Notes: generated from the sequence alone by a model not told the origin. A DNA stretch of 64,000 bases from an uncultured bacterium (GCA_963848965.1 CAWKFG010000004.1:808876-872875), one strand, 5' to 3'. Positions 45,110 to 64,000 are shown, numbered from the stretch's first letter. A program made the numbers and translations.

Positions 45110-46609
45110 TCACTTAAAGAGACCGCTAAGAGCAAGATAGGGTTGTCTTTTGTACTCAGGGATAGAAGTAAGAGCAATAAAAAGGATCCTATGCATTATT
45201 TTTAAGTGTCCTCTTTCACCGGCTTCTTTGGCAAGCTCTAGAGTAGGTTGTGCTCCTATACTCAAAAGAGCATTAACAAAAGGAAGCATTCCTCTTTCTA
45301 CCGCACATTTAAGAAGTGCATCTTTTTTACTTATACCGATATAAGGAATATAAGAAATAAGAGTAGTAAAGAGTGAAACTTTTTGAGGATTTAATTGATT
45401 AATCTTTTCACCAAAGGTATTTACAAGGCGAATAACACTATCAAAACTATATGTATCTGCATAATCAAAAGCAGTGCGGCCATAATAATCCTTTGCGTTA
45501 ATGAATTCCAAAGAGTAACTCTTATAAAACGATATAACCTCAATGTGCCCAAAGATGCAAGCAATCATAAGCCACGTTTGTCCTGTGTTAGTAGTAGCAA
45601 ATCTATTGGTATCCTTTTTGACATACTCTAATGGATTACTAAGATAAGCTTGTACTTCAGGTAAATTGCAAAGTTCTAATAGTTGACAAGTTTCTCTCTC
45701 TTTAGCGAGTGTCAACGCACTCTTACCACTGTACTCTTGAGCTGTAATACTAGCACCATTTTTTATAAGAAGGGCTACTATTTTTTTATGCCCTGCTTCT
45801 GTAGCACATATCAAGGCAGTCCAGCAGCTGTGGCGATTTTTGGCATTACTATCTGCACCTGCGTTTAAAAGCAAAGCAACTATCTGCTCTTCACCTTTTG
45901 CAGCAGCAAGAATTAAAGGAGTTGTCTCAGTATGATATCCAGCATCGATAACTGCACCTTTGTTTAAGAGCAGAGCTGCCACTTCTGTTCGACCATAGTA
46001 TGCAGCCACATGTAAAGCGGTAAAACCATGATCATCTTGAACCTCCATATCAGCACCATAAGCAATAAGCACATCTACCATATGCTTGTCTCCATGAAGC
46101 ACTGCGTTTGCCAAGGCAGTCATCCCCTTATCATCTCGAGCATTGATATTAGCACCATAATTAAGAAGCAATTCTAGTAGTTCTGTTCGGCCATAAGATG
46201 CAGCCAAATGTAAGGCAGTCCAACCATGGTTCGCTTGAACTTCAGTATTAGCACCGTTACTAAGAAGTAGTACTACTCGTTCTGTTTCATGAAGTATAAC
46301 TGCCAAATGTAAGGCAGTATCGCCTCTCTTATCTTTAGCATTAATATCAGCACCTCTATTTAATAGAAGTCGTAGGATCTCTTTATGCTCTTTACTTACA
46401 GCAAAAAAAAGAGCAGGGTCCCCATATTTATTTTGAGCACTAGCACTAACTCCTGCATTTAAAAGCAAAGCTACTAATTCTATATCTCCTTGCTCTACAG
46501 CGGCTATTAAATGCTCTTCTGCTTTTTCCCTTTCTTGTATCTCTTCCATTGCTAACAAATAAGAAAAGAATAATGTGCTTATCAAGCTTATAGTTTTTAA
46601 ATTTTTCAT
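45110..46609 (-). CDS. Secreted ankyrin-repeat protein, family A
   Basis: Start MKNLK at 46609; ankyrin repeats; C-terminus LALSGLFK. Confidence 0.92.
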   Translation of the reverse strand: MKNLKTISLISTLFFSYLLAMEEIQEREKAEEHLIAAVEQGDIELVALLLNAGVSASAQNKYGDPALFFAVSKEHKEILRLLLNRGADINAKDKRGDTALHLAVILHETERVVLLLSNGANTEVQANHGWTALHLAASYGRTELLELLLNYGANINARDDKGMTALANAVLHGDKHMVDVLIAYGADMEVQDDHGFTALHVAAYYGRTEVAALLLNKGAVIDAGYHTETTPLILAAAKGEEQIVALLLNAGADSNAKNRHSCWTALICATEAGHKKIVALLIKNGASITAQEYSGKSALTLAKERETCQLLELCNLPEVQAYLSNPLEYVKKDTNRFATTNTGQTWLMIACIFGHIEVISFYKSYSLEFINAKDYYGRTAFDYADTYSFDSVIRLVNTFGEKINQLNPQKVSLFTTLISYIPYIGISKKDALLKCAVERGMLPFVNALLSIGAQPTLELAKEAGERGHLKIMHRILFIALTSIPEYKRQPYLALSGLFK

Positions 46610-46647
46610 TGTAAACTCCAGTAAGCGCAAAGAAACTGGGCCCTTTT
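46610..46647 (-). mobile_element. Remnant of IscB-element 3' end abutting a start codon
   Basis: TGTAAACTCCAGTAAGCGCAAAGAAACTGGGCCCTTTT versus TGTAAAATTCCAGTAAGCGCGGAAACCGGGCCTTTT at 51361. Confidence 0.75.
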
Positions 46648-49899: not shown

Positions 49900-51360
49900 T
49901 TAGTAATGAAAATAATTTTGAACTCTATGGTATGTATTAATCATTGTTGAAAAAAGCGAAGGTATCTTAAAATAAGATATAAGCACATTTTTATGCTTAC
50001 AGTTCTCAAATAAATCTTTGTAGTAAGGATCAATTAAAGTCTTCCAACCGAACTTTTTCAGCTTTGCTATCAGTACTAATTCTGCAACGCTAAGAACTTT
50101 TAAGGACTCTTCTACATCATAAATCCATAAGTATGATTCTTTTAAGGATTCACGACTTGTAAGGACATATATTCGTACCTTATCTCGGTCCCAGTAAACA
50201 GGAGTATAATCAATACGAGCATCGTAAGGATAGCTATTTATTAAAATTGGATTAGAGGTATTATTAATATTCCAGAGATACATTCGTTCTTGATTAATTA
50301 AAACAATATTTTTACTGCTTAAATCCACAGAAACTACTAGATTCACATCATTATCATTTAATTTTATCTGCCTTATAGGACATCCTTTTTCTATATTTTT
50401 AAGATCATAGATGTAGCAACCAAATGAGGAGGTAGCGACCAAAAGTGTTCCATCTGGACTTACAGTAAAAGAAGATCCTAGACAATGATTTGGTAGCTCT
50501 TTAAAAGGAAGTCTATGCCACTGTAAAGTAGCAATATTCAAAAAATCTATACAAAGTTGTTTTCCTGTTGCTACTAAGAAATCTCCTTGAGGAGTAAATT
50601 GGATTCCAGATAGTCTGTACTCCGATCCATGATCTCTTTTTAAGATTTGAACTAACGAACTTCCAGGAAGAGCAGTAAGGTCTAATGTATAGTAGTACGC
50701 GCTATTTTTTTCCACTTCACTATTAGAGTAAAGCATTAGGAGAGTTCTTTGAGCATTTATTGCAAAATAACATCTAGAACCTAATACTTTTTCAAATTTT
50801 TTAATACATATGCCTTGATCTATATCCCATAAGCATACAGTATCTTTATGCGCCGTAAAAAGGTGATTAGTACGAGGAACAAGAATTAGAGAAAGAATAG
50901 GTTCTGAACTCCGAAGAAAAGATTTCATTTCTAAAGAAGGATAAGAAAATATTCGTTCTCCACACCATTTGCTTTCGGTGTACGGAGGATTTATCTGTTC
51001 AAACTCATTCTGTAACAGCAATAAAGAATCAGTACCTTGTATAAGTTCGTGAAAATATCCTTCACGTACATTCTTTGGCAGTGCTTGTATTTTAGGAATA
51101 ATCTGTATTTTAAAGATATCCCAATAAAGAGGTAAATTTTCGTTTATTAGCTCTCTTCTTATAGTATCTATTAACTCTTGAGAAAGTTCTTTATTATCTA
51201 GTTTTTTAATAAGCTCTTGTGACTCACAATTAATGAGATTATAAGCAAGTTTTGTACATGCTATCTCTTTTAATGGCGGTGCATTATAAATAGGTTTATA
51301 GTGCAATGAATAGATTATATTACAGAAAACTAATGGTATTATATAAAGGATATTTTTCAT
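49900..51360 (-). CDS. Secreted WD40-like beta-propeller protein
   Basis: VCLWDI, QFTPQG, VSPDGTLL, YIYDL, YLWNI repeats. Confidence 0.7.
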   Translation of the reverse strand: MKNILYIIPLVFCNIIYSLHYKPIYNAPPLKEIACTKLAYNLINCESQELIKKLDNKELSQELIDTIRRELINENLPLYWDIFKIQIIPKIQALPKNVREGYFHELIQGTDSLLLLQNEFEQINPPYTESKWCGERIFSYPSLEMKSFLRSSEPILSLILVPRTNHLFTAHKDTVCLWDIDQGICIKKFEKVLGSRCYFAINAQRTLLMLYSNSEVEKNSAYYYTLDLTALPGSSLVQILKRDHGSEYRLSGIQFTPQGDFLVATGKQLCIDFLNIATLQWHRLPFKELPNHCLGSSFTVSPDGTLLVATSSFGCYIYDLKNIEKGCPIRQIKLNDNDVNLVVSVDLSSKNIVLINQERMYLWNINNTSNPILINSYPYDARIDYTPVYWDRDKVRIYVLTSRESLKESYLWIYDVEESLKVLSVAELVLIAKLKKFGWKTLIDPYYKDLFENCKHKNVLISYFKIPSLFSTMINTYHRVQNYFHY

Positions 51361-51394
51361 TGTAAAATTCCAGTAAGCGCGGAAACCGGGCCTT

Positions 51395-51590
51395 TTAAGG
51401 CGCGTCAGTCTTCGCTAAAGCTTCGCCCAACAAGGAGGAAGCGCAGGTTAAATAATTATAACTATAACCATCACATGCATGAATAAGCTTACAATACTTG
51501 TAGCTTATACCTTGTATTGTAGAGCTATCAGTGACAATATTGAAAAAGCCATTAGCTCTTATTGTTATCAATAACGAATACGTATGACAT
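51395..51590 (-). pseudogene. iscB: Internally deleted iscB
   Basis: MSYVFVIDNNK (IscB N-terminus before PLMP) joined out of frame to IRANGFFNIVTDSSTIQGISYKYCKLIHACDGYSY (IscB C-terminus). Confidence 0.85.
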
Positions 51591-51606
51591 AGTATCCTTT
51601 ATAATA

Positions 51607-51843
51607 ATCTCCCCTAACGGGGGTAAAGTTTGCCTCGCTCATGTTATAAGGCGGTATATAGTAAGAGCACTGACTTATACCCTCAATCTGTTTAACCCTT
51701 ACATTACAGAGCATGGAACTGGCAAGTATTCCATGGTGTGATCTTTAACTCTCCCTTATAACGTAGTCAAAAGCAGAGGCCTTTGACTTGAGCTGGTCAA
51801 CGTGAGCTTTTACATGCTACGCCCTTTGGGCGTGGTAGTTGAC
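51607..51843 (-). ncRNA. omegaRNA / HEARO RNA scaffold
   Basis: GTCAAC..GTTGACCAG..GACTACGTT..ACACCATGGAATACTTGCCAGTTCCATGCTCTG..TTAAACAG..CAGTG..ATAACATGAGCGAGGCAAACTTTACCCCCGTTAGGGGAG, matching HEARO conserved blocks with paired stems. Confidence 0.85.
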
Positions 51844-52090
51844 TGCTAACTCTTTACAAGTAGTAAACTGTGGATATACACAGAAAGCTTATACATTATA
51901 GTTATCACATATATAAGTAAGCGTAACCTACTTATATAATAAAAAACTCCCTTACAAGAACAAAGTAATCAATAGCTTGCTTGTAAACCTTAGATAATAC
52001 TATCTTTTTCTTTATGCTCACTTTTTAAAATATTCTATTTATCATAAAAAATCAATAAGATTTAGTAAATTGCTCTAAAAACTATAAAAA
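51844..52090 (-). repeat. Conserved upstream regulatory block, copy C (original promoter region of 49900-51360)
   Basis: Same blocks and palindrome as 44835-45095, displaced by the IscB element. Confidence 0.7.
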
Positions 52091-52242
52091 GTAAATAAAA
52101 TCAGATCTTTTACTTAAGAACTCGTACAAAGGAGTTAAAACGACATCAACTACCTTTTAAAAATTAAATTTTTATTGAATTTAAATTGAATAATAGTTTA
52201 AAATATTAAAAATAAGCTTTAAATAAAGTATAGGATTTTAAC

Positions 52243-63572: not shown

Positions 63573-63866
63573 TTAAAGTGATTTTATGGCATAAGGCAGT
63601 ACGATCTCATTTCTTTGCTCATTACGAGCACTACAAGGAGTAAATTTTATGTCTTCAAGAGTTTCTTTGGCAAAAAGCAAACAAGCCAAAATATCCTTCT
63701 CTGCAAGTCGATCATATTCCTGTAAAATTTCTTTTGTTTCTATGCCTTGCGCAAGCAATCCTAAAATATATTGAACTGTAAGACGAGTTCCCTTTACTAG
63801 AGGCTTACCAAGCATTACCTGAGGATCAATAGTAATGCGTTGCAAGAGTTCATGTCTGCTTTTCAT
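63573..63866 (-). CDS. DUF433 antitoxin, second copy without PIN partner
   Basis: Nearly identical to 59018-59275 up to FTP, then an unrelated tail. Confidence 0.85.
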   Translation of the reverse strand: MKSRHELLQRITIDPQVMLGKPLVKGTRLTVQYILGLLAQGIETKEILQEYDRLAEKDILACLLFAKETLEDIKFTPCSARNEQRNEIVLPYAIKSL

Positions 63867-64000
63867 CTCTATCTCCGTAAGCGTAGAAACTACGTCTTAA
63901 AAGACGTAGAGTAGCGGTTGTTATACTAAGCCGGCAGCAAGAGTAAGTTTATACTTACTCTAGGCTGTACGGCAATCTCCCCTTACGGGGGTAAAGTTAG
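63867..64000 (-). mobile_element. Second non-autonomous IscB/omegaRNA element, 3' part (runs off window end)
   Basis: 63974-63998 matches the omegaRNA 3' hairpin at 51606-51630 (24/25 nt); end hairpin CTACGTCTTTTAAGACGTAG-TTTC..CGCTTACGGAG..|ATGA; no iscB in between. Confidence 0.8.

Follow-up and report, generated by a model that had tools for sequence, protein, structure and literature searches.

A Miniature IscB Element with Both Ends and an omegaRNA, Docked at the Start Codon of a Dependentiae Gene

Introduction

When an RNA-guided nuclease element loses its nuclease and keeps its RNA, what is it that remains: a derivative whose RNA might still be used in trans or simply a fossil? The question is raised by a short stretch of DNA within a 64-kb window (by which we mean the whole piece that was analysed, 64,000 nt, G000:C4:808876-872875) of a Dependentiae genome of 1.73 Mb in five contigs, 88.7% complete. 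An earlier note, made from the sequence alone, had read this stretch as a MITE-like element that kept both ends and its RNA, lost the core of its IscB nuclease and could supply a guide to an IscB encoded in trans. A second question hides behind the first: what does it mean that the element ends exactly where a host gene begins?

Elements of this general sort are familiar. ISC elements of cyanobacteria and proteobacteria insert at N|ATGA, as was verified by empty sites (Kapitonov, Makarova & Koonin 2016, PMC4810608), and start codons are nowhere mentioned in the available portion of that paper. As described by Meers et al. 2023 (10.1101/2023.03.14.532601), where the HEARO side is the conventional right end, protein-less PATE-like elements often encode omegaRNAs, which need to be used in trans by the nucleases of other copies, and the role proposed for them is guide-directed cutting of the vacated donor site. 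An ORF-less, omegaRNA-bearing derivative of the IS200/IS605 type is, on the evidence of these two papers, an already known kind of thing. The less ordinary part of what follows is that these elements dock at start codons and may bring a ribosome-binding site with them.

Results

A parent and its shortened derivative

The genome holds a single full-length IscB/HEARO element (1,583 nt, G000:C4:424125-425707), on the same contig as the miniature element and some 435 kb away from it. A search of the whole genome gave one RRXRR/IscB match, an intact 430-aa ORF that begins MSYVFVIDNNKKPLNP and ends ...YNYLTCASCAP, carries full-length RRXRR (226.8 bits) and HNH (49.5 bits) domains in Pfam and matches solved IscB structures in the PDB down to E 6e-43. 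There is, in other words, one full iscB in trans, as the earlier note had supposed there might be, and its own scaffold differs from that of the miniature element at 6 of 288 positions.

By blastn, the miniature element aligns to this parent in three colinear blocks (282/288, 131/132 and 48/49 identical), the two being 98-99% identical. The 5' block holds six differences, three of them gaps, and the 3' coding block holds one; relative to the parent, the miniature element also has an extra 30-nt segment near its 3' end and a first-hairpin loop that is 3 nt shorter. Between the first two blocks, which share 9 nt, 1,127 nt of the parent are passed over. At the junction, TAACAATAAG, the parent reads TAACAATAA and then, 1,127 nt later, TAGCAATAAG; the near-repeat is TAACAATAA in the miniature element and at the parent's 5' site and TAGCAATAA at the parent's 3' site. 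Because 1,127 leaves a remainder of 2 when divided by 3, the two iscB remnants are out of frame, which is the out-of-frame jump that had been noticed earlier. It is confirmed, then, that the miniature element is the parent element minus 1,127 nt lost at a 9-nt near-repeat (microhomology), and the simplest history is that a full copy inserted at the host gene and afterward lost its middle. Since one genome contains both parent and derivative, the deletion is known to the base and the parental nuclease is still there, this is a clean textbook case. It is not a discovery.

Table 1. Features of the miniature element and its host gene (positions in the window)
Feature	Position	Strand	Basis
Whole miniature element, 483 nt	51361..51843	(-)	blastn against full copy; DNA search of own genome
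Putative 16-nt guide TTGTAAAGAGTTAGCA, host DNA just 5' of element	51844..51859	(-)	read from sequence
omegaRNA scaffold: HEARO (51623-51843) plus CCCC-GTTA-GGGG hairpin (51611-51622)	51611..51843	(-)	Rfam score; RNA fold
iscB RBS (AAAGGA) and 5' remnant ORF, MSYVFVIDNNK-S-stop, ATG at 51590	51552..51600	(-)	equals residues 1-11 of full IscB
Deletion junction, within TAACAATAAG	51558..51567	(-)	9-nt overlap of two blastn blocks
iscB 3' remnant, 42 codons, IRANG...YNYLTCAS	51437..51562	(-)	131/132 nt identical to parent; translations identical
30-nt segment absent from full copy, similar one in older copies	51405..51434	(-)	blastn gap
TAM-proximal (conventional left) end: hairpin (51390-51401), conserved GTTTCCGCGCTTACTGGAA, SD-like GGAA	51361..51404	(-)	nhmmer family of 17-18 copies; stem covariation
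ATGA: target/TAM motif and host start codon plus one base	51357..51360	(-)	sequence; end comparison
Host gene, 486-aa WD40-like protein, start codon abutted by element	49900..51360	(-)	ORF listing; weak WD40-type Pfam matches

Where does the element begin and end? Similarity to the full copy starts exactly at GTCAAC, the element's 5' terminus, and stops right after ...TTTTACA + ATGAA, and it is these limits that set the element at the coordinates of Table 1, just as the earlier note had drawn them. The flank TACTTGTAAAGAGTTAGCA lies immediately 5' of GTCAAC, and, as read from the sequence, the element has no flanking repeat, i.e., no target-site duplication. Its first 54 nt, folded as DNA or as RNA, form a GTCAAC...GTTGAC stem that encloses two hairpins (DNA z -3.43; 0 of 200 shuffles as good). 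Reading along the minus strand after the HEARO, one meets the CCCC-GTTA-GGGG hairpin, AAAGGA, an ATG 6 nt farther on and then IRANGFFNIVTDSSTIQGISYKYCKLIHACDGYSYNYLTCAS in another frame. The nuclease (RRXRR with an inserted HNH) is not encoded here: 11 + 42 codons are left, out of frame with each other but letter-identical to the two ends of the intact 430-aa IscB, and a Pfam scan of the 58-aa remnant ORF gave no match. Everything that had been read from the sequence is really there, at the coordinates given, including the GTCAAC hairpin end, a HEARO-like scaffold of ~240 nt, the ribosome-binding site with MSYVFVIDNNK, the hairpin at the 3' end and the loss of the nuclease core from between two retained ends and a complete RNA; the C-terminal remnant is there also, although the ~35 residues first given for it were slightly low (42 are identical).

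At the 3' end, the short hairpin (GCCTTAAAAGGC) is followed by the motif GTTTCCGCGCTTACTGGAATTTTACA, which directly adjoins the ATG of the 486-aa ORF and sets the SD-like GGAA 8 nt before it. The hairpin folds no better than shuffles do (z +1.08 and -0.43), and its stem co-varies among copies (GCCT/AGGC, CGTCT/AGACG, TGCC/GGCA, GCCC/GGGC and GCTC/GAGC). The earlier note had pointed out that some IscBs use an ATGA TAM; such a TAM or target fits all ends examined and matches the N|ATGA of ISC elements (PMC4810608). What can be added is that this ATGA is the host gene's own start codon. Paralogues of the host protein in the same genome align with it from residues 1-2. On the other flank, the native 5' leader of the host gene closes with the putative guide TTGTAAAGAGTTAGCA, which includes an SD-like AAGAG. 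IscB guides are 16 nt long. The miniature element sits exactly between the leader of the host gene and its ATG.

The state of the omegaRNA

Is the RNA that was kept still a good omegaRNA? Infernal matches it to HEARO (RF02033) over model positions 1-211 of 211 at 133.7 bits (gathering cut-off 83; E 1.5e-27), and HEARO is the single Rfam family above its gathering score that cmscan finds in the window. The 5' end of the match coincides with the element boundary, and the ribosome-binding site and first 11 IscB codons come next. With this match, and with both peptide fragments identical to the IscB termini, the two tests that the earlier note had set for itself come out in its favour, and its reading of what the element is and where it came from is supported. 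The RNA folds with z -3.08. We aligned eight HEARO copies, four from this genome and four from relatives, and obtained by RNAalifold a consensus of 64 pairs, against which the miniature and parent omegaRNAs differ in seven columns. Two of these affect pairs, four are unpaired and the last is an indel in a loop. One of the two pairs goes from G.U to G-C, the better pair being that of the miniature element; the other is an A.A in hairpin 2, paired in the seven other copies and broken solely here. The structure is essentially intact. Given that the two RNAs are 98% identical, an intact structure is no evidence of selection.

This is the point at which a less flattering reading has to be considered, namely that the element is an inert recent fossil with an unused omegaRNA and owes its survival solely to its youth and to its last ~30 nt, which now serve as the host gene's ribosome-binding site. 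The unique broken pair and the 98-99% identity to the parent both suit such a reading. What speaks to it from the other side comes from elsewhere in the genome, which holds four HEARO matches above the cut-off. One of them, at C1:201732-202084, is an older ORF-less omegaRNA element (139.2 bits), ~81% identical to the parent RNA and with no trace of iscB. A second copy of this sister type has been split by the assembly. One piece, C5:5192-5403 (-), matches the 5' 214 nt of the type at 93% identity; the other, the terminal stretch of contig C4 (872742-872875, window 63867-64000 (-)), matches the 130 nt that are left at 90%. Set end to end, the pieces overlap by 2 nt and have the internal junction of C1:201732-202084 in common, and we infer that they are one element; the C4 piece stands directly before the ATGA of a 97-aa DUF433 ORF (window 63573-63866). 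The first ~5 kb of C5 (1-5191), which start where the HEARO copy is cut off, have 62-68% G+C as against 31-42% beyond, and from this step, we read C5 as chimeric, its first ~5 kb being probably a wrong join or DNA of a contaminant.

The two sister-type copies differ at seven consensus base pairs, all of which are still paired in both, each by a single transition to or from G.U; eight further differences fall in unpaired columns, not counting nine end columns missing from C5. In HEARO score (139.2 and 122.8 bits), they match the copies that are linked to an ORF. If their common ancestor was ORF-less, which the junction they share suggests, the seven retained pairs would be modest evidence for structural selection on the sister-type omegaRNA after the nuclease was lost (n = 7; with transitions alone permitted, the probability is no more than about 0.5^7), in an argument that rests on seven substitutions and on the proposed joining of C5:5192-5403 with the C4 end. 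Selection on the structure of a nuclease-less omegaRNA would point to its use in trans. The structure-preserving changes, the high scores and an IscB that is still intact all argue against the inert fossil, which we regard as a possible but rather doubtful account.

One further detail of the split copy may be set down here. The 10 nt left of its C5 piece (C5:5404-5413, GGAGATAGAG) recur as the final 10 nt of the element end with which contig C4 closes (window 63867-63876), and sister copies end otherwise (GGGGATTT, GGAGTTTACA). Should the two pieces be one element, the SD-plus-spacer of the host would be repeated in that element's terminus.

Solo ends, micro-elements and other debris

At least a dozen solo TAM-proximal ends lie in the genome (17 places at E<0.1 match an end profile from which spacer and ATGA were left out, and 18 at E<0.01 match one with ATGA). 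In the most decayed of them, the hairpin is gone, and the GCGCTTACTGGAG...ATGA part alone is kept, which is what one would expect of an inert fossil if only the ribosome-binding part were selected.

Some smaller pieces are worth recording. An internal fragment of iscB at C4:778199-778417 (73% identical, parent positions 1212-1438) lies away from any HEARO match and is likely another dead copy. Within the window itself, at 46610-46646 (-), a hairpin-less TAM-proximal remnant (...GGGCCCAGTTTCTTTGCGCTTACTGGAGTTTACA) precedes the ATGA of a 499-aa ankyrin-repeat ORF (window 45110-46609). Two micro-elements of ~50-65 nt, at C1:448355-448405 and C4:355057-355122, run from an omegaRNA-end terminus (GTCAACTA / GTCAATTACCACGCCCTAAAG) directly into a TAM-proximal end and precede the ATGA start codons of MutS-like and PgpA genes; the left flank of the one on C1 resembles an older end remnant (CTCTTACTAAGGATACT). 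The genes behind ends at C2:55976-56944, C1:200583-201740 and C4:488514-490655 include eukaryote-like or effector-like proteins, such as a DXD glycosyltransferase with a weak TcdA/TcdB-type match, a C2H2 zinc-finger protein and ankyrin + MYND-finger proteins, which fits with the intracellular lifestyle of Dependentiae.

Can the element still move?

A MITE in the full sense is mobilised and multiplied. A search of the genome (88.7% complete) for the Y1 transposase TnpA (PF01797), the check that the earlier note had proposed, gave 0 matches, with the control positive in 6 of 14 genomes, and a DNA search of the same genome found no second copy with the same deletion junction. The miniature element is, thus, one copy and not one of several with the same architecture, as members of an amplified, mobilised family would be. 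The name MITE-like given to it earlier suits a protein-less element with both ends and is otherwise generous, there being a single copy with the deletion, no tnpA found and no empty-site allele seen.

Might it nevertheless be an active MITE or PATE, mobilised now in trans by a Y1 transposase and spreading in its miniature form? Both ends are intact, the sister ORF-less type is present, unlike the miniature element, at two loci with the same internal junction, and PF01797 is found in 10 of 40 relatives, including all three with HEARO above the cut-off (G002, G010 and G019). Against these points stand the search of this 88.7%-complete genome, which found no transposase, and the search for a second copy, which found none, and we consider present-day mobility very improbable. 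The same two negative results are what the inert fossil would lead one to expect.

The 40 relatives yielded no orthologue of the WD40-like host gene, and none of four soil-metagenome runs gave a contig that joins both flanks of the element as an empty site would. The contig of run X1 is the parent locus, with the parent's 3-base loop insertion and its flank. Run X2 covers 51283-51404 and 51976-52126 only and is exact across the junction of element end and host gene; after 51404, its eight loose letters lie 30 nt farther on, and from this loose end, we read the contig as skipping the 30-nt segment. X2 may be the source sample. Runs X3 and X4, from two other studies and 90-99% alike, have one contig each (matched on window 51434-51789) that joins 51513 to 51689 with one extra letter, a different internal deletion that removes the 3' half of the omegaRNA. 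Because this deletion differs from that of the miniature element, the family sheds its middle repeatedly.

These contigs bear also on a more mundane worry, which is that the miniature element was made by the assembler from a full-length copy at this locus. The deletion junction is covered by no contig in the four runs, the contig ends inside another family copy (window 63867-64000) and C5 is chimeric right next to a copy, all of which might feed such a suspicion; repeats did give the assembler difficulty. But on either side of the junction, the miniature element departs from the full copy (6 + 1 differences), and it has the 30-nt segment besides; with differences on both sides, it was not built from the reads of the full copy. 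The X2 contig, from what may be the source sample, is exact across the end of the element into the host gene. We find an assembly artefact scarcely credible.

Docking at start codons

The position of the miniature element turns out to be the rule. With the ATGA-free profile, ATGA follows the element end in 17 of 17 places in the genome, with a GGAG, GGAA or GGGG box 4-8 nt upstream (the profile was seeded from an initial search with a model that contained ATGA, so the discovery of the 17 ends was not fully blind). Sixteen of these ATGs open an ORF of at least 61 aa (the exception has 19 aa), and 13 of the 17 are the first possible start of an ORF of at least 100 aa. The seven copies found by plain BLAST show the same pattern, 7/7.

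How often would this happen if ATGA were simply hit wherever a hit is tolerated? The genome has 17,924 ATGA sites, of which 629 are first starts of ORFs of at least 100 aa and 2,000 lie outside such ORFs. Taking the background as first starts over the sum of first starts and outside sites, the share of start codons among tolerated sites is 0.239, and the probability of 13 or more in 17 is 7e-6; if the target is taken as ATGAAA, which 13 of the 17 ends have, the share becomes 0.407 and P = 0.003.

To judge by their domains, the ORFs downstream are real genes. All 15 that were scanned have Pfam domains (multicopper oxidase, MutS-like, class-II aaRS, ferredoxin, endonuclease V, PgpA, RlaP, DUF433, ankyrin proteins and others), and in several, the domain begins at profile positions 1-3. 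Domains that span the protein start at the ATG: RlaP residues 2-248 lie on profile 3-249, PgpA residues 8-144 on 2-139 and Fer4_13 residues 6-58 on 1-57. For the class-II aaRS gene, the seven closest orthologues, 65-70% identical and aligned from residue 1, come from Candidatus Babeliales/Dependentiae MAGs; they start ATGAA[A/G]CA, have their own AAGGA-type box upstream and lack an element end. These orthologous bare sites mark the ATGA as host sequence and place the end of the element exactly at N|ATGA.

One could turn the matter around and ask whether the conserved ...GCGCTTACTGGAG...ATGA is a host leader motif that the element targets. We rejected this: an identical 12 nt, TGGAATTTTACA, stands before four different genes, and two of the solo ends retain C-terminal codons of iscB.

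How far does the pattern extend? In the relatives G002, G010 and G019, 8 of 8 ends abut an ATGA that opens a reading frame (5/5 IscB-linked ends and 3/3 further solo ends; two ends in G019 lie before paralogous genes and do not count as independent). Among more distant IscB loci, whose boundaries are undefined, 10 of 21 have an ATGA opening an ORF of at least 60 aa within 160 nt of the iscB stop, a mixed picture that makes docking outside Dependentiae only a lead. In G002, a degenerate HEARO (L024, G002:C1:1013615-1013830; 46.7 bits, below the cut-off) has within ~20 nt an ATGAAT that opens a 332-aa ORF, the N-terminus of which we take to be adenosine-deaminase-like; it is another nuclease-less remnant at a start codon. 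A partial literature search turned up no paper on IscB insertion at ATGA start codons, and the pattern may be in print elsewhere.

Guides and promoters

If the host's leader is to be the guide, what would it guide to? Within the genome, the sole perfect match of TTGTAAAGAGTTAGCA is itself, and one site with a single mismatch has no ATGA. The idea that guides have other genomic targets was rejected, no match being followed by ATGA. The 17 nt left of the parent, its presumed guide, do recur perfectly at C1:98771-98787 inside an ffh/SRP54-like gene and are followed there by TTTA, not ATGA; this is probably chance (blast E 0.05). Upstream of the parent, TTGACA-17-TATACT (11/12) ends 34 nt before the element, and a transcript starting there would include a 16-nt guide. 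A promoter scan of the miniature element's own flank gave 4 sites against 4.7 expected, which is chance level.

Discussion

We can now return to the question of what remains when the nuclease is gone. Taken as a whole, the locus seems to us somewhat better explained than not as a non-autonomous, ORF-deleted derivative of the resident IscB (ISC, IS200/IS605-type) element with an RNA that would be usable in trans. One objection is that there is a single copy with the deletion, which may simply have decayed in place.

If the RNA is used, how might it be used? The guide lies outside the element, so the RNA would have to arise from a promoter of the host, farther upstream, and form the leader of the host mRNA, and the last bases of that leader, here TTGTAAAGAGTTAGCA, would become the guide. 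An element lodged between leader and ATG would thereby be assured of transcription, and its TAM-proximal end would supply a replacement Shine-Dalgarno box with which the host gene is still translated; the last ~15 nt, with an SD-like box at normal spacing, would offset the cost to the host. Such a box would also explain how the most decayed remnants come to have lost the hairpin and kept just that part. The omegaRNA would be loaded by the single IscB made from G000:C4:424125-425707, and after excision, the loaded IscB would cleave the element-free allele, TTGTAAAGAGTTAGCA + ATGA, and nothing else in the genome. Cleavage of the vacated site would then lead to homing and retention, as has been proposed for IS200/IS605 nucleases in the retention model of Meers et al. 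With no Y1 transposase found, the element is probably stranded now, and the cleavage step would be called on rarely if ever; by the same token, no empty site should arise at present in a genome whose 88.7%-complete assembly yields no tnpA. The whole of this mechanism, from transcription and loading to cutting and SD donation, we infer from anatomy and comparison.

How does the element compare with what has been described before? In the features given in PMC4810608, it is like the ISC transposons of the IS200/IS605 superfamily: a 5'-GT(CA) terminus, insertion 5' of ATGA without target duplication and, mostly, no tnpA, with a parent copy that encodes an RRXRR+HNH IscB. Those transposons have subterminal hairpins as well; here, the omegaRNA end folds well (z -3.43), and the short hairpin of the distal end folds no better than shuffles and has a stem that co-varies among copies. 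It is unlike them in that the iscB ORF has been lost and that ATGA is the start codon of a gene at 16 of 17 ends. With the PATE-like elements (Meers 2023, 10.1101/2023.03.14.532601), it shares the lack of protein, the retention of both ends and the omegaRNA and a nuclease encoded elsewhere in the genome; those elements are mainly TnpB-type, from Geobacillus, with an active TnpA and many copies, whereas this one is IscB-type, single-copy, traceable to its parent by one deletion and in a genome where no TnpA was found. Compared with HEARO RF02033, it matches at full length with its 5' end at the element boundary, but 11 codons follow in place of an HNH ORF. Finally, standalone omegaRNA loci, reportedly described when Altae-Tran et al. 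discovered the OMEGA systems in 2021, resemble it in that the omegaRNA has no nuclease gene next to it and is presumed to act in trans; here, the deletion origin and the docking site are explicit.

The wider pattern, in which elements dock at start codons, donate a ribosome-binding site and leave solo ends that are kept before host genes, would matter more than the miniature element itself, if it is true. We would put it as follows, tentatively and with slightly more doubt than confidence. In this Dependentiae lineage, IscB elements may be "leader cassettes" that sit between a host's 5' leader and its ATGA start, so that the host promoter transcribes guide and omegaRNA together, the leader becomes the guide and the TAM-proximal end brings an SD box. 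On decay, the nuclease would go first, leaving ORF-less omegaRNAs under structural selection, and then the hairpin. What would be left are the last ~30 nt, kept as a functioning ribosome-binding site before more than a dozen host genes, including one for an aminoacyl-tRNA synthetase.

What would this mean? For the smaller question of whether an orphan omegaRNA is used in trans, the miniature element and its parent make a convenient natural pair. For the larger one, if the docking pattern holds, it would explain how an element with an externally transcribed guide secures a promoter without silencing the gene behind it, and it would be a case in which the ends of transposons have been taken over as translation signals in reduced symbiont genomes.
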